Below, piece after piece: positions 1 to 56,994 of a DNA stretch of 64,000 bases. This stretch comes from Schmidtea polychroa (taxonomy: Eukaryota). The translations under genes and the position numbers were made by a program. The first letter of the stretch is position 1; every line of letters starts with the position of its first letter. The stretch lies in the NCBI GenBank assembly GCA_044892525.1, contig CM097885.1:156178001-156242000 (forward strand). Direction: 5' to 3'. A model generated the notes under the pieces. It made no database searches. It was not told the DNA's origin and saw only the letters and a list, made by a program, of their open reading frames with translations.

Positions 1-2
1 CA

Positions 3-1220
3 ACAAAATGTGGTGTACCAGTATTTGAAACAAATTATAAAGGAATATATTTAGCATACAAATATGTTCCAGCAGCAGAATCATTACATCTATCAGATAT
101 TATGATAGCCAAGTATATCAATAACAAGATTGATTTTTTGTATCATGATTTACAGAAACAATTGTTAGATGTGTATCAGGAAGTGATCCTGAACGATTGT
201 CGGTTAAATCGAGAAATAATATGAAATAGATTAGGAACATCTATAGCTAATCCTGATTTAATAATGCCGATGTTGACAGTGGAAGGAACATTTGGTAGAA
301 TCTTGAGTGAAGCAATTTATAGCTATCAATGTAAAGCAATAGAGGTAGAAATTACCAAATACGATTGATGTACATTAGAGCTTCCTGTGAAATATAAAGG
401 AAAATTGAGATTCATGATACCAGTATCACATCAGGTATTAAAAGAAGATGCCTCACCGTTGACAACAATTTGCAATCCAGCAATGTCACCATTATACAAA
501 ATTAACAATATTTGGATTTCATTGCCAGACAGAAAGCCATCCTCAAAACCTGTTGAAGTACTTCAAGCTACAAAATTAGAAACTAAAATGAAGTTTCGAC
601 CGTTAAATGAGATGTCAAAAGGTGGAGTATGTACTCCGGAAGATATTGAAGAAGCTCGGAGAGCAATTGTATTTCCCCAAATCAGAGATCGGGGAGTAAC
701 AGAGATAATAACAAGAATTTATCAATCATATGATGGAAAACCGGACTATAACTTATTATTTGGACCAGAACACTACAGACAAGCTGCATCAAATGTAATA
801 CGGAAAACCTGGGGTAGATTTACAAGCTTTGACATTTCTGTAGCAGGATGTTCAGGTATATACGCAATAGTGATGATATTGAAAATAATCATATCGCAAT
901 TATTTTCCACCTATAGTATCTTCAAGATCGGTGGATGGTCTTGGAAGTTGCTACTGGGAATGTGTCCAGTATTTCATCATCATAATAAAGAGATCGAGAG
1001 AATGAAGAGACAAAATGTAAAGAAGCATGAATTAATAATGTATGAACATAGTCATCGAGACGATGACAATTCTGACAAGGGAGGTAACCTAGAGGGCTAT
1101 GAGACCTCAGACAACACCTCAATAAAACCAGACAACAAAAAACCGAAATTTCAAAATTTTGAAAATAGTACGTTACAAGAGTACCCTTTTAAACCAAAAA
1201 GGAGGAAACGACAGGCGTAG
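3..1220 (+). pseudogene. C-terminal half of a chuvirus-like (class III fusogen type) envelope glycoprotein; in-frame TGA at 222 and 366
   Basis: Frame 3 reads TKCGVPVFETNYKGIYL...YINNKIDFLY...DCRLNRE...GTFGRILSEAIYSYQCKAIEV...CTLELPVKYKGKLRFMIP...CNPAMSPLYKINNIW...GGVCTPEDIEEARRAIVFP...WGRFTSF...AGCSGIYAIVMILKIII...YSIFKIGGWSWKLL. The Cys spacing and motif order match my recollection of chuvirus G and chuvirus-derived retroelement Env. Hydrophobic TM region near the C-terminus. Confidence 0.75.
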
Positions 1221-1485
1221 CCTGTGAACTATTTGTCACCATTTGAGGGTAGAAAAAAGATAATACCAGAACGAGTTGAAGAGGAAATGTTAAATTGTTT
1301 CGGTTTTAGAACAAATACAGATATATTACCATCTTCCTCATATCCAACGTATCATATGAAGTTCGAAACAATGCCACCCTGGGTACGTCAGTATTAGAGA
1401 TGGTACAAAAATATCCATTTAGCACGTTGAAACAACTAAAGGAAAACTATCAAGACGAAAATGACAAAGATTGCAAAAATCAACA

Positions 1486-2417
1486 TGTTGAGGATACCTA
1501 AATGAAAAATAACATAATAAATAAATAAATTACCTGGGGGAAGATCGTCATGACAAATTGGACGATCTATGGGAACTCAGAAAAGAAAACAGAAGTAAAA
1601 TGAAATTAAAAATGAGAAAGATAAATCAAAAAGAAGGAAACAAACAAGAAATTAAAACAAAGGTCATTGTTAATTAAGAAATACAAATGAAGGTGGAATT
1701 TCAAATTCCAGAAAAACAAAATAAGGGAAAAAGCCGTATCTTGACAGCTTGTCAAAGATAGCAAAATTGTTGGGAGAAGGCGGCTTAACAGAAAAGGAAA
1801 ATGGAAAAATATCTTGACATCTGTCAGAGATAAGGCTGATGTAGAGGGAAAGGAAAATGGTAAACAGAATCTGTCGCCAGTGCCACAAACAAAAAAACTA
1901 TATAAAGGAAAACTGGTGGACGAGAAATCAGAACAGATTGAGAACAAATTTAGAACGAATTTAGAACAGATTTAGAACGAAAACAGAACGAAATTAGAGA
2001 CAAAAAGTAGAGTAAAATTAGAGACAAAAGAGTTAAAATGGGAATCAAAACAAAGTGAAAAGAGAAGTGACAAGAATCTTTTATAAAATTGAATATAAAG
2101 TAAAAGTGGAGTAAATAAATTGTGTGGTCAAAGCAAATAGAACAATGATCAAAATATTCTGTAATTGAGTAGTTGACGGCTAGTGATTATTGTTGTGGTT
2201 ACAGAAAGGGCTATTCTTCACGTAGTGTCGAAATAAGCTCTGTGTGATAAATTGGTTTATAGTTAATTGGTTGTAATTGAAATTTGTACTATTACGTGTG
2301 GATATTAATAAAGCTTATTGTGTTCAAGAGTGTTGAATTGCGAATTAATAAACACACTTTGGAGCCAGAGTAAAGGTTTGACTTTACAAATATTGTCACC
2401 AACACAATAACCCAACA
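1486..2417 (+). mobile_element. Solo LTR (family A, 932 bp) inserted in the glycoprotein-protease linker
   Basis: Termini TGTTG...CAACA; 4-bp TSD AACA at 1482-1485 and 2418-2421; homologous to 28379..29345 (inverted); removing it restores an open frame into the protease. Confidence 0.9.
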
Positions 2418-2421
2418 AACA

Positions 2422-5400
2422 AAAATTCAGAGATAATATTCGAGGAATCTCAACAATATTAATGGTCAATACAATTAAAAAGACTCATAAGCCTACGATT
2501 AAATTAAAGGTTAACAGGCATACGGTTCATCCCATTATTGACTCAGGATCAGATTTGACACTGATCGAAGCAAATTTATTAAATGAAAGAGAATTACAAG
2601 CAATAGTGCCGACATTAACTGTGGCATCGGGAGCAAACGGACAACCTATCAATGTTATCGGAACATTAGATTGTGATTTAAGGTTGCGTGATTAAAAATG
2701 TAGACATGATATGTAGAATGTATAGGCGGAATGTATCGTGGGAATGGATATATTGAAAAAGTTAAAAGAAATTGTATTCGATTGTGCAACAGGCTAATTA
2801 GTAAAAGTTACGAGTAGAAAACGGGAAACCTACAGTTTAGATGTAGTGTTTTTGGATAGAACGGTGACAATACCAGCGAGGACCGTAACAGTTTGTTTTG
2901 TAGCAACACACCAAGAGGTGGAATGAGATGTTATTTTCGAACCGAGTGAGCAGTTCGTAAATAGATATAAAACGCCTATGGTGCAAAACTTGACAACAAA
3001 ACGGGGAGGAAGAATCCCAATCAGATTTACGAATCTAGCAAGCAAATCATTGAGACCAGAGTGGGTAAAATAATACAACTTTCTAACTTAAAGAAAGAGA
3101 CTGAATGGATATTATCGGTACAAGAGGATGAACGAGATCCCGATATCGAATATTATGATGCACCGAGCTGCGATAGTAAAGCTTTGTCTAGAAAATAAAA
3201 TATTAGAGTTAACCAGTTGTTACGTAAATATGACCAAGTTTTTGCCAAACACGAATATAACCTAGCTCAAGTTAATATTTTAGAGCATGAAATAAAATTA
3301 ACAGAAAGTAAACCGATAAAAATACGCCCGTACAGAATACCTCAAAGTATACAAGGGTCCGTAGATAAACAAATTAAATTAATGCAAAAATATAATATAA
3401 TCAGACCCAGTAAATCTCCATATTCCTTACCTTTGGTGGTTGTAGCTGAAAGAGACGGCTCAGTTAGATTATGTAATGACTATAGAAAATTAAATGAACA
3501 AACAGTTAGTGATAATCATCGGCTACCTTTGTTAAATTATATTCATGATAAAATGAAAAATTCAAAGTTGTTTATTGTGATGGATGCACAGAAAGGTTTT
3601 TATCAAATAAAGATGAGCGAAAACTCAATTCCTATGACAGGATTTTCTACAAGTAGTGATCATTTTGAATATCTAGTGATGCCATTTGGATTAAAAGGAG
3701 CCCCTCCAACCTTTCACAGAGCTATAAACATCATGCTGATAGATGCACATCACGCAATGGTATATATAGACGACACTATCATCTTTTCGGAAGATTAAGA
3801 TAAACATTTAGAACATCTTGAGGATATTTTTAAAAGATTGATTATAGCAAATCTCAAGGTAAAACCAAGCAAATGCAAGTGGGCAGAATCGGAAGTGATT
3901 TACGTAGGGCATGTAATATCACACGATTGCGTAAGACCAGATCCGGCTAACATGGATAAAGTGAAGAATTTCCCACAACCGGTGAATGTTAAACAAATCA
4001 AAGGATTTTTAGGGTTGACGGGATATTATAGGAAATTCATTCGGAATTTTTCAGCAATTGCTTTTTGTTTAACTACCTTAGAAAAGAAAGGAATAAAATT
4101 TTTATGGGGAGAGGATCAGTAACAATCGTTTGACAAGTTGAAAGATGCTCTATGTAATCCACCAATTCTACGATTTCCTGAATTTAAAAGACGGTTCATG
4201 GTGATGACCGATGCATGCACAAGTTTTGGGACAGAAAGACGAAAATGGCGATGAATACGCAGTAGCATATGCAAGTCGTGGATTGAAGCCACACGAAAAA
4301 AAGTTATGCTGTGATAGAATTGGAAGCATTAGCATTAGTATTTGCAGTGGAGAAGTTTAGTCATTACCTATGGGGCAGAAAGGTAGTTTTCTATACAGAC
4401 CATAGACCATTACAATGTTGTTAAAACATAGAGACTAAGTATCGAAATTAGTAAGATGGGCATTGAGATTACAGCCATATAATATCGAAATTGTATATCG
4501 TAAAGGTAAAGCGAATGGTAATGCAGACGCATTATCACAAATGGAGCAAGAGCCTGAGTCAGAAGATATAAATGAAGGAAGATTAGAAGGAACTATTTTC
4601 ATGCTAACAAGCGAGGCTAACACTTTGAGTGATTTAGTAGAAGCGCAGAAAAATGATGACTAGATCAATATGATCAGTCAAGCTATCGAAGTAAAGGTCA
4701 TACCAAACGAGATTCAGAAATATTGGGAGAAACATAAAGATAAATTCCTATTGGAAGAAGGCCTAATCAAATATATGAAATCAAGAGATAATGTAATATT
4801 AGTACCAAAGAAATACAGAAAATCGTTATTATTACAGTACCATGATGGATCACTTGGAGGACATCTCTCAGGTCTAGATTTAAAAATGAAATATTTCTGG
4901 CCAGATATGAAAGATGATGTTAAAAGTGGTGTCAATCGTGTAAGATATGTGTAACCAGAAGGAACACAGGCAGGAAACCACATGTTCCTTTGAAACCAAT
5001 GCCAGTACCGTCCTCGCCAATGGAGATGACTCTATGGACGTATTAAGGCCGTTTAAAGAATCGAAGATGGGAAATAAATTTATCATAGTATTTTGCGACT
5101 ACTTAACGAAGTGGTCTGAAGCATTCCTAATTCCGAATCATAAGGCAGACACAATTGCCAGAATCTTTGTTGAACAAATTGTATGAAGATATGGTGTTCC
5201 GACAAAATTGCTTACCAACAGAGGAAAGGATTTTATGAGTAATCAACTGAAGAGTATAAATGATTACTTTGGTATTTTAAAGTTAAATTCGTCACCATAC
5301 CACCCACAGACGATTGGGTTGGTAGAAAGGTTCAATGGAACATTGACAAACATGTTATCATCATACTTAAACTCAGGTCAGATCGACTGGGATGTGCACA

Positions 5401-5950
5401 TACCATCGTGCTATTTTGCGTATAGATATGCTGTTCATTCAGTTACAAGAGAAACACCTTTCTATCTGATGTACTTAAGGCATAGCAAGAAGCCAGTGTA
5501 TCTTATATTTTATCCGAAATTGTGATGAAGGAAACTACTTATTCGAGATGAAAGAAAGAATGATAGAAGCCTGGGAGAAAGCAGGTTTGAACATTCATGA
5601 TCGCAAAGCAAAGGATCATGGGTTTGTGGTAAAAGACTATATGATGTTGGAGGGGCATTACAACAAAAAAGGGTTTGTCTCCGAAATTAATGAGAAATTA
5701 CAAAGGGCCATATCAAATTTTGAAAGTTACAGAAACAAATTTGGTCTTGCAGTTAGTGGCAAACAAGAAAGCAGAACCCATTATGGTTCATGCGAACAGA
5801 TAAAAAAAAGATAGTTCCACCAGAAAAAGAGAAACCAAAATCAGAGATTGATGAATTCAAAATAGATAAGAAATCGAAAAAGAAAACGTTAGAATCATAT
5901 TAAAGTATCCTAAAGGGACAACCAGAACGATACCCTTTACGATCTCGACA
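2422..5950 (+). pseudogene. pol: Gypsy pol (aspartic protease, reverse transcriptase, RNase H, integrase), fragmented
   Basis: ORF-track pieces 2462..2695, 3217..3798, 3838..4122, 4463..4663, 4670..4954, 4947..5186, 5208..5525 carry consecutive pol motifs. The C-terminal PIMVHANR and RYPLRSR motifs are typical of gypsy integrase tails. Confidence 0.92.
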
Positions 5951-6962
5951 GATCCCGAAAACAGTAATTTTTCTAGCTGTAATTAGTTGTGTTATGATGA
6001 TGGGACAAGCATTTGAGATGTTTATACCAAAAGCAAGTCAACATCCAGATTTTGAATATCAACGAACAGGTAGAGCATTCAGATTTTGTTTAACAAATAT
6101 ACAATGGTACAGATTTGATCTATACCTGGCAGCTGCTGAGAAAGGAATATCGTTTCACTTGAATATATGGGATCGTGTAAAAGTAGTAGATGGACTGATG
6201 CCAAATACAAGTTATCTTCTAGAAATCAATACATTTTTTGCTGACCCAAACGTTTTTGCAGACGGAGGAGATTGTGTGGATAAAGCAGCATGCATTCTGA
6301 AGACTGCAGTATTTACTAAAAAAGTGGAGATTTAATATCTCGGGCAAATAGTAAGGTTTAGTCATCTATTGTGGAGGAGAAATGATACGTTTTACGCTCA
6401 AGATTGGAGGATAAATAATAGAATCGCGCTTATCGTTATATTGGAAAATAACCATCGAGTCAAGAAATTAGAGCTCAACCATGCGTATCAACGTAGAAGA
6501 TGGACAATCAAACAAAATGTTGTGACAAAGGCTAACATTTCGTATTTAGAATTTACTGAGAGAACGGTTGGTATTCAGTACATCACGAAATGGTAGATTT
6601 AATACCTTCCCAAAGGGAAAACTAACTAGCAAAGAAGGAAAGGCTAGATTAGTAAATATTCCTGGTTGTAGAGGAATAAATGCTATGGATTGGATTAATC
6701 TTCGAAAGGTAGCGAGTGAAAAACAATCCCGTATAAATAAATTAATTAATAACTGTAATTGTCAAAAGATAAAATGCCAACCTGGTTATTCATAGTTATA
6801 ATAGGGGGAGTAATTTGCATGATTTTAACTTTAATATTAGCTACCCTATGGATGTTTAGATTAATTATGCGGGATATCCGTTATTGGGAAAATATTTACG
6901 AAACCGAGGTAAGGTGGAAAAAGTCTCACCATATACTAGGAAGTGTAAATATATATATATAA
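5951..6962 (+). pseudogene. Predicted type I membrane protein (signal-like segment, FN3-like motif, TM helix) in frame with the integrase tail; disrupted
   Basis: PERYPLRSR continues in frame into QIPKTVIFLAVISCVMMMGQA (signal-like); VVDGLMPNTSYLLEINT resembles the FN3 E-F strand signature; TM WLFIVIIGGVICMILTLILATLWMF in 6759..6962. Confidence 0.55.
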
Positions 6963-7114
6963 TTATTTATTCGATATTTTATTTATATTAATATGTAAAC
7001 TAATGTGGGCTTAACAGAGCATCGGTAAAATCAGACATCAGCGAATGTTGACTTTGGTTACCCTGCGAGGGTCTATCACGAAAGTGATAAAAGCTGTTAA
7101 TATTTTTTTTAGAA

Positions 7115-9100
7115 ATGAATTACAACAGAGAACCAAAGCCACAAGTCCGAGAAAATCGACGACACCCATTGGCAACGTACAATCACCAGACTCGAGTTGA
7201 TACAGAGGTATACAGTACATATACAGGTTCATCGGAACCATGGTTGCAGCGAAAATGAACCATCTCACCTCAAATTATTGGTATTATCCTAAGAGAGTGG
7301 ATATTCCAAATGATTTTAAATTCCCAGGCCTCGAAGGCAAATGATGGTGACGGTTGTGAAAAACCAAGGGAGATTGAAACTGGCGGAAATATGCAGAGAA
7401 TATGGCTCTTGTCAAAAGTTAGAAAACATTTGGATCCATGCGATAAATAGGCCATTCACTGTGTTTATGGTGGGATTAGAGTTACCAGCGGAACTGGAAA
7501 AACAGTGCACTTTGGAGATATATCATGTTGATGGACTAGAACGAAATATTATGATCCAAACAGCAGCAATTAACACCATAATCGTGTTAGAAATCCTGGA
7601 CTTTAAGAAGCCATACCTTATAGTTTGTAAAAATGAACCGTCATGCATTTACAATGTAAATGAAGCTGATATACAGCAGTGCAAATCGTTTGTGAAGAAA
7701 AATTTAACCAAAGCCGAGGAGGATGAGACTACAATTTTCATATCGGCAGGTTTTGCCAAATCCAGAATTGAACTAAAAGAAACCCTTATCCAGATTGCGA
7801 TTATGGATATGAAAGGAAATAATTTATTGAGTGCGGTAGTGACCCTCAGAGATCCAGTTAAACACTACCAAACGCACTAATACAAGTTGAAGGAACCCGA
7901 TATCAGAGGAAATCTTGACGAAGAGGATTGTTATCACATTATAAGGAAGATTTGGGATAAGAAAATTCTTGTAGACATTTTGCTTAAAGATTTGATCTCG
8001 GTAGCCAATCTACCTGTGCAGCGATTATTTAGTATCCGTGACCTTTCTTAAAACAAATTATTGGAAACCAGAGGAGTCCCTAAGATTCATGAGCATTACA
8101 GATTGGGATTCCTGACAAAGACTTTCTCCCGGAGAATCAAGGAATTTAGTGGTCACCAATGAGACACTAGTAATACGTGCAGTTTACGTACATATTAGAA
8201 ATGAATGGTTAGACCATATCACGATACCCCAGGAGGGATTCGTTTCCGCAACTACAGCAGCGATAGTTGAACAGGAAATGGCACAGAAGAGGAGATTACC
8301 CAAGCAGCCATCTACATCGGATCAAACCCAGCCAAAGAGGAAATAACCTGTGGACCTACCAACGCCTCCGGTTATATCAATAGGAAAAGAGGACGAGTAT
8401 GTGAGGAATGTGATGCGGAAACGGCAAAAACACCCAAACAATCGACTAGCACTACCTATCAGCCAAAAAATAAGCCAGAAACTGCAACAAGAAAGGAAAA
8501 CCTGGAAGGAGGTAAGGTGAGGAAGATGTTAAAGAAAATGTTACCAGTAAAAAGAGACTAGTCGAAATTAAAGTTGAAAAAGGTTGTTAAACCATCTGAA
8601 AAAACATCAACAGTACAATCCAAAAGAGTGGAAGAAAGTCAAAGCAAACCGAAGAAAATATTTAATGAGCCAGAGGACGATATCATGGAAGTTGCCTTTC
8701 AACCTCCGGTTAAGGAATTGCAAGAAGCGATAAGGGTAAAATCGGAACCTGTAATTTGCAAAAAGTTGTTGAAGATTGCAAAGAACATGATAAAAAACCA
8801 GTATCGGTTGATGTGGATGAATTCGAGCCTATGTGGTATAAACGTCCTGACAGTAAATGGAAACCCAGAGCCAAATAGTATGACACATATGACGTAGACG
8901 GAATCCCTTACGTAGTGTCTACGGTCATATTAACAAGCGCTTTGGATGGTAAGGCTCTGGCAGTGAGTTTTGAGCCAGAAGTCTTGCAGAAGCGGAAAAA
9001 GAAGCTGCAGCGGCAATACGTTATTGCGAATGGCTACAGCACAACGGAACTAAACCTTTACAAGATCCCAGAACCAGATCCCGACGATCTGGATATTTAA
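7115..9100 (+). pseudogene. Accessory ORF3 with a REX4-like DEDDh exonuclease fold (~7731-8215) and a K/E-rich tail; disrupted
   Basis: ATG at 7115 follows a TTTTTTTTAG acceptor-like run. IQIAIMDMKGNNLL..VV..RDPVKHYQTH...KILV..LLKDL...IRD...SLRFMS...VIRAVY...EW parallels the REX4 pattern ARISIVN..G.V.LD.FVKP...V...RT...RILVGH.LKHDL...LRD...SLKKL...ATMLLY...EF. Confidence 0.55.
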
Positions 9101-9372
9101 TCAGGGAATGTTGCCTCTCAACAATTGTCGTCGAAGCCACTGTGTTCAGTTGATTATCCAGTTATTTGATATGGTGATTATTCAGTTTTTGACATTAATG
9201 ATCCAGTTATTTGTGATTTGAAACATTTGTTTTATTTTTCGGTGTAAATAATTAAAGTTGAATTTTCTTATTTGATTAATTTTTATATTTTATTGTAATG
9301 CTGTTTATCGAAAGTCTTTCTTAAGGTTACTTATCTTGTTTTCGAGACGAAAATCTTTTAGGGGGTAAGACT

Positions 9373-10771
9373 TGTTAGGGATAGGCCTGGAGACTGAAAT
9401 AATAAAACAATAAAAATTACTAAATTTAGAAATAGTATATTAAAAGAAAATAAACAATTACTTATAATAGAAAAAGGTTAAAAAAAATTACTTAAAATAA
9501 AGTTTAGTCATATTTAAAATAATATAAATAAAAATAATCTATAATTAGTAACAATTGGTGTTACTAATACTATATATAGTATATATTACTATTAATATTA
9601 TAAATAATTATATTTGGATATAAATAGAGATTCATATAGAGAACCAGGGACGAACAATTTAAGACGCAAATTTCAGACGAGAAATTTTCAGACAAAGAAC
9701 ATAAAATTAAAAATAGGGCATTTCTGTGAAGAAACATGATTAAAGAATCACCATGTAAATTGATTAGATTTTCGAGAGGAAAACAATTTGATTAGTTTGA
9801 TTTTAATTAACTAAGGAGATTTGATCGGAGATTTTGATCAGTACAATTCATTTAAATTGTTGAGAGAGAAATTTCACAAGGAGAGGAAAAATTTGAAACT
9901 ACGATTGAAGAGACGATTGACCAAAGTAAAATATTTATTGTTTGTTTGAAGGATGAGTTACTATCCTTGTGTCGTTTCGTTATTGTGAAATTTAAAAGAA
10001 CGATCACAAAGTATTGACAACTTACTTTTGTATTCCCTGGGTGTCCCAAAATAATCCCACTTGCTTAACCATTTCTTTCATCGACTTTGCGATCGTTGTA
10101 CTACACATGGGCCATCGACCTCTTGTAGGCTGAGATAAACAGCAGGGATTAATAAATCCATGTCTTGAATTTTTCTTCTGTACATTTATAAAATTACCAT
10201 TTGTAAATTGTTCAATAAAAGTTTTTATAAAAGAAAAGAGAAGTTGTCTTTTTTATTTGATTTAAATACGCGCAACCACATTAAATATTTTATATCTAAA
10301 TTTATATTTATTTATTGGAGTCATAGTGTTAAGGTTAAAAGCCCCCATCTTTTCGATCTTAACAGAAGTAAAAAACGAATTCAAAACTTAATGTTGACCA
10401 AATCATTTTGAATCTTAGCGTATGAGAAAGGGAGATCTCTTATTGGAAGATATTTCCAATGTGCAGGTTTGAGGTTGAAATTGAAAGTGTGCAGAGCAAG
10501 AGTTACTTAAAGTGGTGCAAACTGAAATTGTTTCATTAAAGTGTGTAAAAAATAAGTGTAATTGTGGTAATTTAGAATAAATATTATTGTGTTGGGTTGT
10601 TCGATTTGCTTAATAAAAGGACACCAAGAATTCAGTCAGTGATACCGACTTACCAAAATATCCAAATTTATAAAAATGTTGTAAAGTAAAAATCAGTGAA
10701 TTTTTACCCACTTGTTAATTAATATTGACTTTGTTTTCCAATTTTTAAATAATTTTTTTATTAATTTTAAC
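9373..10771 (+). repeat. Probable 3' LTR of the Gypsy element (right boundary uncertain)
   Basis: Begins TGTTAGG immediately after the purine tract at ~9360; AT-rich; the candidate end ...TTTTAACA at ~10771 is a guess. Confidence 0.35.
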
Positions 10772-13965: not shown

Positions 13966-14070
13966 TTAAATAATATTATAAATTTCGAAATTATTGATTG
14001 TATCTCATTATTATGAATTTGTCAATAGAATCGTTTATCTTGTTCTTCACATTTCATTTCATTTATCGTC

Positions 14071-14681
14071 CTAGTGGTTTTATTCTTTTCAGTGTACTTA
14101 AAGGATTATTATAACTGATAGCTGTTTACTTCTGACCTCAAATTCAAGTCACTATCGGTTTGATAATATTGATTTTATTAATATTAATTTTATTAGTTAT
14201 GACCATAAAATTTAAAATTTACTATAATTTTTAGATAATCATTTTTTATTGATTTTTCAATTGCAATTATTTAGTGAATTATATTTCAAATACGACGAAG
14301 TTCAAGAGAAAATAGATAAAAAATGATTTTTAATTTTTCCAATAAAACACGATAAACTTAAAAAATCTAACAATTATAAAATTATCAAGTACCTCTGTTA
14401 GTTCAAAAGTATTATTTCAGTTTTAATGGCATTTTATGATAACATTTTCTTTGTAACTTTAGGTTGTGTGAAAGGTTTTTGGTTTTGTAGACTAACATAA
14501 ACATTAGACAGCAATATAATAATTAGTTATACAGTACATAGTTATTTTTGCTTACATCAGAATTAATTTTGAGACATTATTTTAAGTTCAAAACTGATGG
14601 TGATTTGAATTTGAGGTCAGATGTAATCAGCTATCAGTTTTAATAATCCTTTAAGTACACTGAAAAGAATAAAACCACTAG
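14071..14681. mobile_element. Foldback-type MITE with ~90-bp terminal inverted repeats
   Basis: CTAGTGGTTTTATTCTTTTCAGTGTACTTAAAGGATTATT... at 14071 is inverted at ~14590-14681. Confidence 0.75.
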
Positions 14682-15925
14682 AACTAGAAAACCTTTAGAA
14701 GGACTAGGAACATCAGAAAATACCACAGGAAATTATATATGCCTTAGATAACGTCCACAAGACGCTTGAACGGTTTCTCATGAACTTTACAGTTGAATAA
14801 ATGCTTTAATCAATATTACATTTCAATCAAAAAAATATATAAAATACAACAATCATTAATAAACTTGTGACAATTTATGAAGCGTGGAAATGTAACCAAC
14901 TATTTTATAACGCCAGTCATTAATATTAAATCGAAATTAAAAACCCACCGAGATAATTAAATGAGAAAATACATAGTACAATTCATATTTCTGAAATATA
15001 GACTCAAAATAATGTTTCAGCATAGAATAAAAACGATTTTGTGAGAATAAGAAATAAAATCATATACAAGTTTCGGAAAATAAAAACGGATTGGTGAAGA
15101 TAAGAAAAGAATTGTTATTCAATAGGGGACCTTGAAATAGTTCAAATTATTTTGTCGTTCCGTTAATGTTTTAGTTATTAAGTCTCGTAAAGTTAATATA
15201 GAAAGCGAATCAAAAGAATACTATTTTCTAACTCGAAACCGTAGATTGAAACAAGATTTGTTTAATATAAAGAAGAAACTAGGAACTACTTTATTACACA
15301 GAAATACCGAATTCTCATACGAAAATGAATTGTTATTCACTGAAATTAATATGAGATGGACGACAAGATTTATGCTATTTGATAAAGTATATGATGAATA
15401 TTGATTTTATTAATATATAAATAGTGACGATGGAATTTTGATTTTTAAATCATTATGCTGTTTGATATTAGTAATAATGTGATTTCACTAAATCTGAAAG
15501 TATGTCAGCTACTGAATTAAATGCCGTGTTTCATCAATGAATTGTTTGCCAGTTAGTAGTGAACGCAATGGCAAGAAAGGTAATAAGTATTGAAAATTAC
15601 TATTATTATTCCACCACTATACTACAAAACTGATAGTATAATAATTATCACTATTACGCCAATTGACTGATAGATAAACAAATTGAAACTTCAACTGTGA
15701 AATTTTGATTTTCATAATTACTGAGTTATTCTATGGAAATCATAATAAAATTTTTTAAATAAATTATGAAATTTAATTGATAAATCCAACTAGCTTAATG
15801 AGATTTATCTAACAATATTTGCAAAGAAAAGAAGTTAGGCTACTGTGCTGAGCCATTTCTTCGTTATTATTCCCTTTTTACATGAAAATTTGTGTGGCAG
15901 AGAATATTGATTACCAGGATTATCA

Positions 15926-16750
15926 CAATTAGATGAAATTGGCAAAGAAAGTAATTGTATATGGTTCGCACGCAATGAACAGACACGAAGTGGGCTATTG
16001 TAGCACTAGGAAAGAATTTTTAGACACAATTTATTTTACCGAACATTTCAAACATTATTTATATGGTAAAAGGTTTAAACTAAGAACAGACTATAAGGCA
16101 ATAACGTTCATGTTGAAGACTAAAAAGCCAATAACATCTCAATTTGAAACATGGATTAACCAATTAGGTGGTCTGAACATTGAAATGGTATACCGTAAAG
16201 GAAAAATGCATTCTAATGCATATGCATTATCAAGAACTGAATGCGAAACGTGTTTACAATGTAAAACGAATCACGAAGAACTACAAACAAGAAAACTAAA
16301 AACAAAGATTCAAAAAAAATGATTTTGAAATTGAACGTCAATTTAGAACTGTTATAGATGCCATCCAAATTTCCTTAAAAGAAACAACGGGCAAAGACTT
16401 GGTTGAAATACTTCCTGAAGTTGAATTTATGTTGAATGCGAATTTTCAAAAAACAACTCAGCTGAGTTCTGCACAAATTGTTCTTGTGAAAAAAGTTGCC
16501 AGAGAACGATATAAAAATGACAAACCATGTGAACTACAATTATTAATGGAAAAGCGAAAATCAGGAAAATTAAAGTTACTAAAACAAATGCATGAAAATA
16601 TGAAAGATGAATCATATTTCAATGAAGTAAGACCAAGTCGAATTTTCAATGTTGAGGATGTTCTTTTTGGTAAATAAAAATAATGTGGCAAATAAAAATA
16701 AAGACAGATTTGTGGGTCCAAGGAAAATAATGAAAGAGTTGTATGACAGA
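15926..16750 (+). mobile_element. Gypsy pol fragment (RNase H end plus integrase end, internally deleted); inverted relative of the element at 27222-30000
   Basis: HFKHYLYGKRFKLRTDYKAI...YRKGKMHSNAYALSR; nucleotide-level homology to the reverse complement of 27570-28378 and 29346-29490. Confidence 0.85.
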
Positions 16751-30086: not shown

Positions 30087-31967
30087 CCCTGCAGAGCACG
30101 CGCTAAAAAAATTACATGGATGCGCGCGTTGGGTCTCACAGACCCAATATTGTTTTCTCATGATTTATAGACTTATTGATTGGCAAAATAAAGCAATATT
30201 AAATTTTAAAAGATTTATTACTTTATAAACAAGCTTTTACATTCAAAATATTCAACAATTTATGAAAAAACACAGGAAAGAATTATTCATTGCACAAAAG
30301 AAACTGCATACTGTGAAGCAAGCTATTGATCATCAGAAAGACACTGTTCGCAAATAAATTTAGCGTGTTTTAAACACAAATACTTGTGGCACGTGGTACA
30401 GAAGTATTTAGTCTTTCTGTCTCTACCCTGGCATTTATGACAACGCCCTCGTTTGCCAACTGAGGGGGCCTCATTTTGTACTTCTGTGTTTGTTACTTTG
30501 GACAATTTCTGTCGCAGTTGCTTTGGCAAGGTTACGATACTGGATCTTTTCTTGACGTGATCGTCAACTAATTCTAGACACAATTTCTTCAGAAATGTTC
30601 GTCTTTGCATTGGTTTATTTCCATTTTTGCAATAAATAATAAACCCATTGACACCTTCGATGTTTAGTAAGCGATAAAATATGACCATCGGCCATCGTCT
30701 GGTGTTTCTAGCACAATTGTAAAGGGATGACTTTTGATCTACAGTGTCCACTCCTCCTTTTGTAGCGTTGTAGAAAGTTATTATTTCTGGCTTACGAGCG
30801 TCTCCTGTCTCCTCGTCAATCTTGTCATCATTGTGAAGTGTAGAAAGTACCAAAACATTCTTCTTCTTTTTAGGAATATAAGAGACTAAAGTGCAGTTAT
30901 CCTCAAAGCCAAACAAACTTGTTTTTTCTTCTCTGCCTCGAAGGTTCAGGAATTCAGGAGGAATTTGTCTTTTGTTTTTCCTCAAAGTGCCAACAACTGT
31001 TATTTTATGCCTAAGCATTCTTTTAGATAAATCATAGCTAGTAAACCAGTTATCCAAGGTTATGTTTCTCCCTGTTCCGAGTATACTACTGCACACCCGT
31101 TCAACAACATCACCAGGACTATTACTAACTTTATAGGGTCCATCCGCTTGCGTTCCGACATAGACCTCAATCTTACTTGTGAAGAAAGTTTGCGCATCCA
31201 CTAAAGCAAAAAGCTTGATCCCATATTTATCAGGTTTAGATGGAATATATTGTCGAAAACTGCATCTTCCTCGAAAACCAGCTAACATTTCATCAACGGT
31301 GGCATATTCGGAAATAGAATAAGAATTCTGACAGTTATTTACAAATATTTGAAATATCTCTCTGATTGGGGCTAGTTTGTCACTCTTCAGCTTTTCACTT
31401 CTTGTCGTTTTGTCGTCGAACCTGATGCACTGGAGAAGGAATTTGAATCGTCGTAATGACATAGTAGTATGAAATATATCAACACCTGTTCCATCTTGCT
31501 CCCACAGATCTTCCAAATTTTGTCTTCCTTTTTTTCCAAACTGTCTCACCATCTTTACCAGTATAGTAGTCTAAACCATCTGTATCCAACTCATCCTCAG
31601 AAGCTACGTCACTCATTTCTTGTTCATTATCAGTAGATTCACGTCTAACCTCCAAATTGTCTTCCTCACCTGCGTCACTATCATCATCAGTTTCATCAGA
31701 ACTCACAACAATTGTCTCCAGTAGCTGTCGGATTCTTTCGTTTTCTTTTTAAACTGGATCCATGATTATTTTTTTTTCAAAAATAGTAAAGACTGTTGTC
31801 TAAAATTATAATAATTTAATAATGTATTAATGATTTTGGTCGAAATTAAAGTAAAGCTGAAATGAATCAGCTACAGAATGTTCTGAATTGATGCTACGCC
31901 ACAAAAATTTTTTTTACGCAAAAAAAGATCGTCTGGGTCTGTGAGACCCAACGCGTCCTCTGGAGGG
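30087..31967 (-). mobile_element. piggyBac transposon, internally deleted
   Basis: TTAA TSDs; TIR CCCT(G/C)CAGAG(C/G)ACGCG plus internal repeat TTGGGTCTCACAGACCCA at both ends. Confidence 0.92.
30323..31764 (-). pseudogene. piggyBac transposase (DDD triad and C-terminal Cys-rich domain intact; N-terminal stop and deletion)
   Basis: TVDEML, TLDNWFTS, GGVDTVDQ; CHKC...CTTCHKYLCLKH; TAA at codon 5; a frameshifting deletion joins GKDGETVW to KKGRQNLEDLW. Confidence 0.9.
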
Positions 31968-43930: not shown

Positions 43931-46179
43931 CCGTATTTTCGCGCATATACCCCGCATACGCGCATAACCCGCACACGCGTATACCCTGCACAAATTACAA
44001 AGTAAAAACAAAATCGTACGACCCGCACCCTTATATACCCCGCATGTGCAAAGTGAGACTTGCCGTAAACTACCAGTACATAAGGTTGTTGCTTATCAGA
44101 CGTCTGTCCCTCGAGGCGCAATCGTGCTGCAGTTGTTGTTCCAACAAGCGATACATGGAGTGCAACACGCGTTTGAAATACGATACGAGCCTACGTCGTA
44201 TCTGTAGTATGTTGTTTTGACAGAAAGTCGTTGACCTAGTTATCTGGTGATGGTAGGAGAAAGATTTGCTGCAGCAGCTGAGCTGGGCCCTACGATTGGC
44301 CTGATTGTGCATCGGCTGGTGCTCGGCCTTATTGTGTAGGCTATTAATTCCTGGGGTAATCAGCAGCACGGGTATTCTTGTAGTTTGAACTTCGTAGCGT
44401 ATAGCGTGCAGCACGTGCAATTAAAGTGTATAAAAAAAGTGTATAAATTCTAATCAGTACTCAGTAAAGTCTTTTAAGCCTAAAAATGCCAAAGCGTAAT
44501 TCATATACAGCCGATTTTAAGCTGCAAGTTTGTGCAGTTGCTGCTACAAAGGGCAATAGAGCTGCTGGAAGACAGTATGACGTTGATGAAAAGTCAGTTC
44601 GCGAATGGCGAAAAGACATTTAAAGTCTACAGCAAATTAATCCCCGCAAAAGAGCTCGTCGAGGGGGAAAGGTTAGATGGCCACAGCTGGAGACAAACCT
44701 CGCAGCATGGGTTCGCTCTCAGCGTGAAAACAACAGGGCAGTGTCAACTGTTGGTATCAAACTGAAGGCGAAAATAATGGCTGCTGAAATGAAGATGGAT
44801 AATTTCACTGGTAGCAACAACTGGGTTTTTAAATTCATGACACGTAATCAGCTGTCGGTTCGTGCACGGACAACTGTTGGCCAGAAACTGCCAGAGAATT
44901 GGGAAGTGAAAGTTAACGACTTTCAGGAATTTGTTAGAAAGGATATCGTTGAACAGAATTTAAATCCTTCTGCTGTCTATAATATGGATGAGGTACCCAT
45001 GTCTTTTGATATTTCGGCAACTCGCACTGTAGCGGAAAGTGGTTGTAAAACGGTTGCTATTACCACAACTGGACATGAACGCACCTGCTTGACGGTTGTC
45101 CTGGCGTGCTCAGCTGCCGGTGAGAAGTTGAAGCCATTGATTATATTCAAAAGAGTGACAATGCCACGTGAGAAACTGCCTCAGGGAGCAATCGTACTGT
45201 GCAACAAAAAAGGATGGATGAACACGGACGTGATGAAAGAGTGGATTGAACGATGCTTTCGTGCTAGACAGGGTGGATTCTTTCTGCCAAAGTCTTTGTT
45301 GATTTTTGATGCAATGGCTGCACACAAAGAGCCGTCTGTTCACAAACAGATCAATAAGACCGGTGCGCACATTGCTGTCATTCCGGGTGGCTTAACATGT
45401 AAGTTTCAGCCACTTGACATCGCTGTCAATCATCCATTCAAGTGTTTTGTCCGCAACGAATGGGAGAAATGGATGAGTGAAGGAGAACACACATTCACAC
45501 CATCAGGAAAGCAGAGACGTGCTACGTACATTGAAGTATGCAAATGGGTTCTGGCAGCGTGGCAGCAAATCAGCACTGAAACTATTCGCAATGGTTTCAA
45601 GAAGGCTGGCCTGCTAACAGTTAGTGAAGCTAATTCAGAGCCAGCAGTAGAGGGCAGCTTCATTTCGGCCGACAATGTGAACGCTGATACTGACGATGAT
45701 GATAGTGATGAAGAGTCGATTTATGACCCAACTGCTGTTGCCAACATGCTTCGCTTATTTGAAGAAGACAGTGAATATGATACGAGTTTCGATGGCTTCA
45801 CTAACTATAGCGAGGACAGTGACATTAGTGAGACTGGCGATTGCATGCATTGTAGTCTATACGTTTCGACACTACTGGTATCGGCAAATTAGTTAAGTTG
45901 CTTACCTACTTGTTACATTTGATTACTAGTATATTAAAGATTCTCTGCCGCATCGGTACTATTTGTTTTCTTGAGGTTTATAATGAGATGTTCATAAAGC
46001 TTTACAATGTACATTTCACAACCACACAGCGAACTATAGGAGGTATAAAGACCCACCGGTATGTCCATAGTTTCCGTTATGCTATGTTTATGAGTAAAAT
46101 AAATTTTGTAAACCCCGCACAGCTGCCATTCGTTTGGAAAAACTTGTATAACCCGCGGGTTATATGCGCGAAAATACGG
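43931..46179 (+). mobile_element. pogo-family DNA transposon (DD35D, Passer/POGK-like), near intact
   Basis: TA TSDs; perfect 19-bp TIR CCGTATTTTCGCGCATATA. Confidence 0.92.
44486..45892 (+). pseudogene. pogo transposase (Brinker-type DBD, CENP-B HTH, DD35D) with a single in-frame TAA at 44621
   Basis: MPKRNSYTADFKLQV...GNRAAGRQYDVDEKSVREWRK; NMDEVP, IFDAMAAH, QPLDIAVNHPFK with 35 residues between D2 and D3. Confidence 0.9.
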
Positions 46180-54381: not shown

Positions 54382-56994
54382 CAGGGCTGGCAAAAGCGTC
54401 GACCGCGTAGCTATCGAAAGTAGCCCGCTAGCACTATGGAAAATTGCATATAAAAATCAGTTTTTTATTTATTGAATTTCTAACTTTATAAACATATTTA
54501 AAATAAGTTTCGATTCATATGACAAAAAAATTCCAATAAGAAACATAATATTAGTCAGATAACACTCAGACTGTAGTAAATTTTTAGTTTGAAATTCAAA
54601 TATATACAGTTAGCTAATAATCAGAATAAATTTCATGTGTTTGAACAAGTAGGCCATAAAATAAAAGCAAAACATTGACGCTACAATCTTCGATAAGGAA
54701 TAAAAAAATAAAAAACAACCAAAATAAAATACAACAAACGTGTGTTTGTCTATTTCAATTTTGAAATCAAATTGTTTTCGTTAGAAAAATTTGAAAGCTT
54801 GAAGTATTCAGTATTGAATAATACCTGCTTATAATATTAATTTCAAAATTTTTTTATTAAAAAAAATTCTTTATAAAAGTTAACATTTTTAATTTTTGAG
54901 TATGTAAGTGTGTTTAACATTAATTTTCATATTTAATTTATTTTAGCTTTTATTATTTTCTTGTTTTAGCCCCAATGACACAACCGGCCAAAAAACTAAA
55001 ACGTACCATTATAATACTGAATGGGAACAGAAATTTTTTTTCATAATGATGAAAGATAAGTGTGTTTGTCTCATTTGTAATTCAAACGTAGAGCTAACGT
55101 TGAACGACATTTTCGAACAGTGCACAAACAGTATGAAATTGACTTTCCATTACATTCCGAGGTACGAAAAGACAAAGTCAAGCAGTTAAAGTCTCAATTA
55201 GGTGCACAACAAACTTTTTTTACGAAATTTAACTCAAAATCAAAAACAGCTACCCTAGCATCATTCAAGGTAGTTAATATTTTGATGAAACATAAAAAAC
55301 CTTTTGGAGATGGCGAAATATGGAAACAGGCGTTTGTTGAAGCTGGTGAGGTTTTATTCAAAGATTTTAAAAATAAATCCGAAATAATGGATTGTATCAA
55401 CAATATGTCATTGGCGCGCAATATTAGCACGCAAAGAATGGTGGACATTAGCAAAAACTTGGAAGATATTTTGCGGCAAGATATTCGAAAATGCCGCTTT
55501 TTCTCTTTGCAATTTGATGAATCTACAGGTTTCACTGATACTGCGCAACTATGCATCTTCATTCGAATGGTTTTTGATGATATGTCAACCAGAGAAGAAT
55601 TATTGACTATTCTTCCAATGAAAGGACAAACAAGGGGTCAAGATATTTACAATTTATTCAAGTCTTTTATAAGTCGCACCCATTTTCCGATTCACAAGTT
55701 GGTATCAATTACCACGGATGGAACTCCGTCTATGATCGGAAAACATGTCGGATTTGTAACACTTTGCAAAAATGATGAAGAAATTTCCAGTTTTCATTCG
55801 TATCATTGCATTATCCACCAGCAAACCTTATGCTTGTTGAACTCTAACTATGTAATGAATATTGCGTTTAAAATAGTAAATTCGATACGTGCAAGAAGTC
55901 TACAACGACGTCAATTTCGAACTTTGCTTGAACAATGTGAAATTGAAAATACTGAATTATTGTTACACACGGATGTAAGATGGCTTAGCCGTGCAGCATT
56001 TTTAAAACGATTTAGAGATCTTTTGCCCGGAATAAAACAGTTTTTGACTGGAAAAGAAGAATTATATCCCGAACTGGATAAAAGTTGGCTGATAAATCTT
56101 GCTTTTCTTTGCGACATTACAGAGCACCTGAATAAATTAAATTTACAGCTTCAGGGGAGACACAAATCAATTCTTGACATGATAACGGCAGTAAAGACGT
56201 TTAAAGAGAAACTGTCCTTGTTTGTGCGTCAACTAGAACGGGGTGATTTGAAACATTTTAAAAACATGGAAGAAGAATCCAAAAATGCGCCAGGAATTCT
56301 TTACTATAAATATACAAATCAAATTACTACCCTTTTAAATGAATTTAACACACGTTTCGCAGATTTATCTAAAATTGCAAATATTGCTATGTTCATGTCA
56401 TTCCCGTTTAATGATGTTATTGATACAGAGGAGATCGCTACTCAGATTAATGAATTTCTGGATTCAGATTCAGCTTGCTTAGAAGATGAGATAATAGCGT
56501 TGAAAAGCGACATTTACTTAAAATCAAGAGCTACAACCGAAGATAATTTTTGGAATCTTATTTCAGAAGAAAAATATCCAATTTTGCGGAGAGTAGTTGG
56601 ATATATGTCCGCATTTTTTGGATCCACCTATCTTTGTGAATCAGCCTTTTCTTCAATGAATGTCATTAAAACAAAACATCGATCTTGTTTGACAGATGAT
56701 CATTTGGAATCATGCTTGCGGATCGCCAAAAGCTCCTATTGCCCGAAATACGAAGAACTTGCTGATAAGATGCAGTGCCACGTATCAGGTGCAGGTAGTA
56801 GCAGTAAATAATATTATATTAAGATATGTTTACGTTCTAGTAAAGTATTATAAGTTTTTGTCTAATTCGTTTTGTATTTAAATAGAATAAATAGAATAAC
56901 TACAGGTAACAATTGAAAATAGTTTTTCTGGTAGACCGCCAGATTTAATTTAGTTAAAAGTCGCCCGCAAGACTTGAAAGTTTTGCCACCCCTG
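54382..56994 (+). mobile_element. hAT transposon (SPIN/GTF2IRD2-like), full length
   Basis: TIR CAGGG(C/G)TGGCAAAA; perfect 8-bp TSD CTATATAC. Confidence 0.93.
54975..56811 (+). pseudogene. hAT transposase; 563-codon open core, frameshifts in the N-terminal zinc-finger region
   Basis: EWE..FF...KCVCLIC...NVERHF; SLQFDEST, ITTDGTPSM, HCIIHQ, RWLS, STYLCESAFS. Confidence 0.9.

Follow-up and report, generated by a model that had tools for sequence, protein, structure and literature searches.

The window analysed here, a 64,000-nt stretch of the Schmidtea polychroa genome (contig CM097885.1), begins inside what is very probably an old and now defective copy of an enveloped Ty3/gypsy element of 15 kb. 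In the family of this element Gag, Env and Pol share one reading frame and would likely be made as one polyprotein, which is predicted to pass back and forth across the ER membrane before being cut. The parts of this copy, all on the forward strand, are as follows:

1..833 (+): C-terminal part of the ectodomain of a chuvirus/gB-type (class III) Env, its frame interrupted by stops at ~222 and ~366 (PF24664, E 1.1e-7 over 3-221 and 3.9e-29 over 369-1217; 92% identity to a sister copy)
834..899 (+): predicted Env transmembrane helix, TM1 (KD19 2.27 in a sister copy; position kept in two other families and in the ENA protein P0005)
900..1485 (+): Env cytoplasmic tail and 5' part of the Env-protease linker, with a private TAG at 1218-1220 and a private 1-nt indel near 1380 (linker dN/dS 0.04, shared variants)
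1486..2417 (+): solo LTR of a sister Gag-Env-Pol family, 932 bp, target-site duplication AACA, inside the linker
2418..2800 (+): remainder of the linker, then the aspartic protease (IIDSGS, with its catalytic D at 2540), with breaks from 2693 onwards (Pfam RVP, E 2.5e-4)
3199..5810 (+): remains of RT, RNase H and integrase, ordered as in gypsy elements, with many private breaks (RVT_1, E 1.3e-17; Integrase_H2C2, E 8.3e-8; sister copies have the full set)
5964..6911 (+): membrane protein encoded behind the integrase, within the one ORF of the family, with predicted signal peptide at 5964-6011, ectodomain including an FN3-like stretch, predicted TM at 6783-6857 and tail ETEV (hydropathy and sister copies)
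6990..9100 (+): decayed separate ORF2, ~740 aa in sister copies, no family match
9357..10364 (+): polypurine tract and 3' LTR, the LTR at 9373-10364 (LTR/PPT comparison with sister copies)

Env thus lies upstream of Pol on the same strand, the PF24664 match being followed by protease, RT and integrase fragments, as an initial annotation of the window had described.

Structure of the family

The part of the window from 900 to 1500 has at least 39 other matches in its own genome at 83-89% identity (40 scored of 84 candidates), and four copies were taken with 20 kb on either side. In all four, Gag, Env and Pol are enclosed by one pair of LTRs of 1.04-1.09 kb with TG...CA ends; the two LTRs of a pair are 99.3-99.9% identical, so the family has moved recently. 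A 4-bp target-site duplication is readable in three of the four. The primer-binding site (PBS) of each would pair with the 3' end of a tRNA-Trp(CCA) encoded in this genome, and a polypurine tract (PPT) precedes the 3' LTR. A full-size copy measures 15.3 kb. The Pfam scan of sister copies returned three CCHC knuckles, PF24664 (E 3.3e-72), protease, RT, RNase H and integrase. With its LTRs, target-site duplication, PBS and PPT, and with Gag knuckles followed by PR-RT-RH-IN, the family is a Ty3/gypsy LTR retrotransposon.

The long reading frame, ORF1, runs through Gag, a putative ubiquitin-like domain, a putative Bcl-2-like domain, a predicted signal peptide, Env, a predicted TM, a linker, Pol, a second predicted signal peptide, an ectodomain and a final predicted TM. 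The ubiquitin-like and Bcl-2-like domains both fall under the curated Pfam cut-off (E 7.7e-4 and 8.6e-3, respectively), and the PDB matches for them are weak (FPV039, BOK, Mcl-1 and CNP058). From Gag to Env, the copy used as a yardstick has 1,773 codons without a stop, and the same stretch is fully covered and unbroken in four of 23 further copies; the remaining ones carry scattered breaks or deletions, no break being common to the family. The only breaks that recur in this stretch belong to a duplicate pair, to one stop found in two copies, and to two breaks that the window copy shares with one other (L054). At the other end, the frame continues from the integrase into the hydrophobic segment of the second predicted signal peptide in 17 of 24 copies (12 stop-free, five with stops), the other seven being five that were not scored, one that is shifted and one with an insert. 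One stop closes ORF1 in 19 of 24 copies, in 18 of these after ETEV. Because the Gag-Env, Env-protease and integrase-end stretches all continue in frame, we arrive at an ORF1 of ~3,490 codons, a single frame put together from separately examined regions rather than from one copy read end to end. ORF2 follows at a variable distance (133-140 nt between marker motifs), so it is not joined to ORF1 by a fixed frameshift; it gave no Pfam or PDB sequence match.

The window copy is older than the young copies, to which it is 86-92% identical, and 30 breaks were mapped in it downstream of TM1. A deletion of ~2.4 kb (~810 codons) upstream has taken out, among other codons, those of the Bcl-2-like domain and those of the signal peptide and N-terminus of Env. 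No CCHC motif is present in window positions 1-2700, and no exact PBS motif within the window. Gag is indeed absent between env and pol, as first reported, although it is not missing from the element: within ~2.4 kb upstream of the window, where gag, PBS and 5' LTR had been suggested as worth looking for, lie Gag remnants with one intact knuckle, the tRNA-Trp PBS and, of the 5' LTR, the final 87 nt.

The Env-protease junction

In the window copy Env is ended by the TAG at 1218-1220, after which the same frame stays open to a stop at 1395, that is, for the 58 codons counted in the initial annotation. The latter had also proposed that removing the insert lets the linker frame run into the protease, and by their coordinates the frames at 1310-1501 (VLEMVQKYP...KNQ) and 2411-2695 (QKFRDN...IIDSGS) do share one register; the second gives retroviral protease Pfam matches. 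The gap between Env and protease contains only two purine runs, 10 nt each and both inside coding sequence.

Sister copies, proposed as the way to learn whether glycoprotein and protease form one ORF, bear this out. In 20 of the 27 copies examined (19 of 26 without the yardstick copy) one unbroken frame connects the TM of Env with the protease motif, while six have breaks and one is partial. All 11 breaks seen among them are private to one copy. These 27 were drawn from at least 39 other copies, and three pairs look like duplicates; since some copies are near-duplicates, the counts overstate independence. In uninterrupted copies the TM and the protease motif are ~246 codons apart, a distance at odds with the ~310 bp that had been estimated between glycoprotein and protease. 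The TAG at 1218, the 1-nt indel near 1380 and the solo-LTR insert were found in none of the 27 copies. For this reason we read the TAG and the shift as decay and not as recoding sites, one of the two options left by the initial annotation; they are two among many breaks of this copy.

Selection on the junction was assessed by simple site counting of dN/dS among 21 copies, with shared variants defined as those in three or more copies. For shared variants dN/dS was 0.05 in Gag, 0.12 in the middle part, 0.09 in the Bcl-2-like domain and signal peptide, 0.01 in Env, 0 in the TM and tail, 0.04 in the linker (3 N, 19 S) and 0.04 in the protease; for private variants it was 0.26-0.51. Purifying selection on the linker between Env and protease is strong, its protein sequence being conserved no less strictly than that of the protease itself.

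The insert at 1486-2417 starts with TGTT, ends with AACA, and is bordered by a 4-bp duplication, AACA, at 1482-1485 and 2418-2421. Most of its best 32 other matches span nearly all of it at 89-95% identity. Other copies of this LTR stand behind a PPT and/or ahead of the same PBS, and one of them lies next to what is left of Gag, Env and protease in a sister family. On this evidence the insert is a solo LTR from a sister family with the Gag-Env-Pol layout. Among four stretches beside other copies of this LTR, three gave only short Gag remnants or nothing.

Env and the membrane segments

A profile search of the genome scored at least 68 places with PF24664, many in frames of more than 2,000 codons. 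A second family, with 42-43% Env identity and 50% RT identity to the window family, has the same four hydrophobic segments in four of four copies, and open stretches of 2,966-3,020 aa in all four. A third family (40% Env identity, two copies) has the first signal peptide (SP1), Env and TM1, with the protease motif in frame in one copy. The Env of all three families has 14 Cys, and the ENA protein P0005 carries CCHC, PF24664 and protease in one chain. For a low-confidence model of Env (pLDDT 47; TM-scores at most 0.34), the best Foldseek matches were gB of herpesviruses (E 3e-8) and the glycoproteins of chuviruses (E 4e-22). The search for homologues of the Env ectodomain found none at E 1e-10 in proteins of similar length, and one longer protein matched. 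Env is a chuvirus/gB-type (class III) ectodomain between a predicted signal peptide and a predicted TM.

Signal peptides and TMs were predicted from hydropathy, which places four membrane-type segments ahead of Env, behind Env, behind the integrase and near the end of ORF1. The one ahead of Env ends in TNS, followed by LTAYDC, and has a modest hydropathy in the window family (SP1: KD19 1.46, KD15 1.97). The resulting in/out/in/out alternation would leave Gag and Pol in the cytosol and both ectodomains in the lumen. The suggestion that Pol hangs off the cytoplasmic tail of Env fits this hydrophobicity pattern, as a predicted topology. Two observations count against this topology. Behind TM1 all families have another, weaker hydrophobic stretch (KD15 2.03, KD19 at most 1.1), which would put Pol in the lumen were it to span the membrane. 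In addition, no N-glycosylation sequon is found in the Env ectodomain of eight open copies of the window family.

The post-integrase membrane protein

The ectodomain behind the integrase had four phmmer matches among 1.84 billion proteins, two of which are FN3-repeat proteins (E 7.9e-10 and 8e-4); an FN3-like character is thus suggested, and suggested only, by sequence. No homologue of the protein was found among longer proteins, and its single-sequence fold was uninformative (pLDDT 40). The tail that closes ORF1 reads ETEV, ETRL and ETWV in the three families. In the open text of the papers searched, neither a post-integrase membrane protein nor the predicted four-segment topology was found.

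gB-type fusogens need an attachment partner. The entry mechanism of gB-carrying errantiviruses is stated to be unknown in the text of PMC13524379, and the predicted second surface protein, encoded in the same ORF, offers a candidate for that partner which can be put to the test.

Expression of the element

The initial annotation had supposed an ancestor with a (Gag?)-Env-linker-PR-RT-RH-IN polyprotein, and in the family Gag through Pol do form one frame across a junction that is not chimeric. How could such a chain be sorted? Gag and the ubiquitin-like and Bcl-2-like domains would stay in the cytosol. An internal signal peptide behind the Bcl-2-like domain would then send the Env ectodomain into the lumen, signal peptidase cleaving it, and TM1 would bring the chain back, so that PR, RT, RH and IN might remain on the Env tail until freed by the protease of the element. 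From the second signal peptide and TM2 a further surface protein could arise, its short tail ending in ETEV. Without any recoding, the output of Gag, Env and Pol would be 1:1:1.

Internal signal peptides and stop-transfer helices likewise sort the cytosolic and luminal parts of one chain in flavivirus and alphavirus polyproteins. The likeness is one of predicted topology and no homology is claimed; the window family consists of LTR elements that use reverse transcription and carry a class III fusogen. We tentatively extend it to a mode of expression resembling that of positive-strand RNA viruses, with one polyprotein, four ER crossings and no frameshift or readthrough. The Env signal peptide might here double as the tail anchor of a Bcl-2 mimic and the Env tail might recruit Pol to the budding membrane, while the FN3-like surface protein, with its PDZ-binding-type tail, would be cut from the integrase end and serve as attachment partner for the gB-type fusogen. 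Support for the single-polyprotein mechanism itself comes from the copy-level absence of a signal for Env/Pol recoding, the selection on the linker and the conserved pattern of signal peptides and TMs.

The single frame could also belong to the DNA only, with splicing yielding separate Gag-Pol and Env messages and Pol not normally tethered to Env. Single-ORF gypsy elements can splice: Cer1, which has no gag-pol stop, makes a spliced cerv mRNA, as described in the text of PMC10309623. ORF2, moreover, has no fixed frame relation to ORF1 (the 133-140 nt given above), which makes some second mode of expression likely. However, purifying selection acts on the tail and linker as it does on Env and protease, and three families preserve the alternating signal peptides and TMs that would hold Pol in the cytosol. 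Were Env spliced out, there would be no need for either, and we regard splicing as an unlikely account of the frame. Contigs of a putative RNA run (X1) reach 30 of 30 and 29 of 30 bins of a sister copy; among the contigs listed none extends from TM to protease, and GT..AG joints were not seen. These data bear neither way on splicing. In the text of PMC8532177, gypsy elements are derepressed after smedwi-2 RNAi.

A role of the TAG at 1218 and of the shift near 1390 as programmed sites that tune the Env:Pol ratio, which had been offered beside decay, is far less probable. Slippery-type heptamers are present in the A/T-rich region, and the two sites are a feature of the window copy only; yet none of these heptamers lies near 1380 (the last is at 1188), the copy is broadly decayed, with its many breaks downstream of TM1 and its upstream deletion, and the absence of either break from all 27 sister copies leads us to reject programmed readthrough or frameshifting for the family. 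The junction might finally be a unique chimera, with an env from another element, as a foreign solo LTR sitting in it could suggest. Here the chance seems close to nil: of 19 copies, 18 can be aligned to either side of the insert with 87-91% identity over more than 1.1 kb, the 19th aligns over a short piece, and a single LTR pair holds Gag, Env and Pol in the four flanked copies. The chimera was rejected on these grounds, and the single polyprotein is the reading that we retain.

Relation to known elements

The layout is not new, contrary to what the initial annotation had implied. An env in frame between gag and pol was published in 2019 for the planarian element Burro (Arkhipova and Yushenova, PMC6431247), and the main text of Chary and Hayashi (eLife 2026, PMC13524379) describes gB-type elements with the order GAG-ENV-POL in Nematoda, Bryozoa and Platyhelminthes, six of them from Schmidtea mediterranea, and reports that such elements are not monophyletic. 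Gene order and in-frame fusion being already known for close relatives, the window copy adds one more family and not a new kind of element; interest now lies in the processing and topology of the polyprotein and in the role of the second membrane protein.

The window family shares with the GAG-ENV-POL HSV/gB-type errantiviruses the order gag, env, pol between LTRs and a gB-type ectodomain. Closest to it is Smed_errantivirus_4, which shares the gag-env-pol order, gB-type env, Ty3/gypsy pol, multi-copy state and a span of ~15 kb (14.9 kb for Smed_4; PMC13524379) and is 31-37% identical to Smed_1, 2 and 3 according to the same text. Over an Env stretch, by a count made by eye, only about 164 of 252 residues (~65%) are identical to the window family, so Smed_errantivirus_4 is likely its counterpart in a related host. 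The tRNA of Smed_4 is given as 'none' in PMC13524379, whereas the PBS of the window family matches tRNA-Trp. The post-integrase membrane protein of the window family was not seen for the Smed errantiviruses in the text of that paper, and the words 'polyprotein', 'fused', 'single ORF' and 'splic' do not occur in its main text.

Burro/GYPSM1 shares with the window family the env in frame between gag and pol. It is larger, exceeding 30 kb with an ORF1 of 4,873 aa as given in the text of PMC6431247, and its MATH/TRAF, BIR, ankyrin and dUTPase domains have no Pfam match at E 0.05 anywhere in ORF1 of the window family. Its ubiquitin-like and BCL2-like domains ahead of env may have counterparts in the weak matches, under the curated cut-off, described above. 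Further afield, non-canonical nematode ERVs also have env upstream of pol in a metavirus, as does the window family (Sacco et al., 2022, as cited in PMC13524379).

Descent of the window copy

The window copy (stretch L021) and the L054/L005 copy at 236.6 Mb of contig G000:C1 are both old, are missing a similar middle region and have two breaks in common. These features suggest that the two copies are descendants of one defective lineage. L005 carries neither the TAG nor the shift of the window copy, and it is also free of the solo LTR. The primer tRNA of these abundant Gag-Env-Pol elements is tRNA-Trp(CCA), whose genes form a tandem array with a period of 284 bp on contig G000:C4, from 55,022,433, and whose gene pattern has 821 matches in the genome.

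Encoded proteins

The Env ectodomain, read from the sister-copy stretch L092 (3903-5534) and from seven other open copies, comprises 544 aa with 14 Cys. N-glycosylation sequons are absent from the ectodomain in these copies; the ectodomains of the sister families have one or two. P0005, a protein from ENA, is a single chain of 2,296 aa that carries Env and Gag knuckles together with three protease-like DSG motifs, and in which an RT motif was not found.

In three families, the last four residues of ORF1 follow the pattern E-T-x-V/L, a motif of the class I PDZ-binding type; they read ETEV, ETRL and ETWV (window 5964-6911 and sister copies). Despite this common end, the post-integrase ectodomains of the families align poorly (23% over 100 aa, E 0.32). 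In one copy of the third family, L100 (G000:C52:144800-154799, minus strand), approximately 2.9 kb of pol is absent compared with stretch L101, but a single open frame of 1,433 aa ending in ETWV still holds Env together with TM2 and the second signal peptide.

Within ORF2, the segment at window 7700-8200 (aa 290-465 in the sister-copy stretch L028) was judged by eye to resemble a degenerate DEDDh/REX4-type exonuclease from which the acidic motif is absent. Pfam and PDB sequence searches with this segment returned zero matches.

Other features of the window

14062-14690, inverted-repeat pair, 100 bp
16176-16232, another gypsy fragment, RNase H-end-like
30326-31570, long ORF, DNA-transposon transposase-like (by eye)
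44624-45889, long ORF, DNA-transposon transposase-like (by eye)
55081-56808, long ORF, DNA-transposon transposase-like (by eye)
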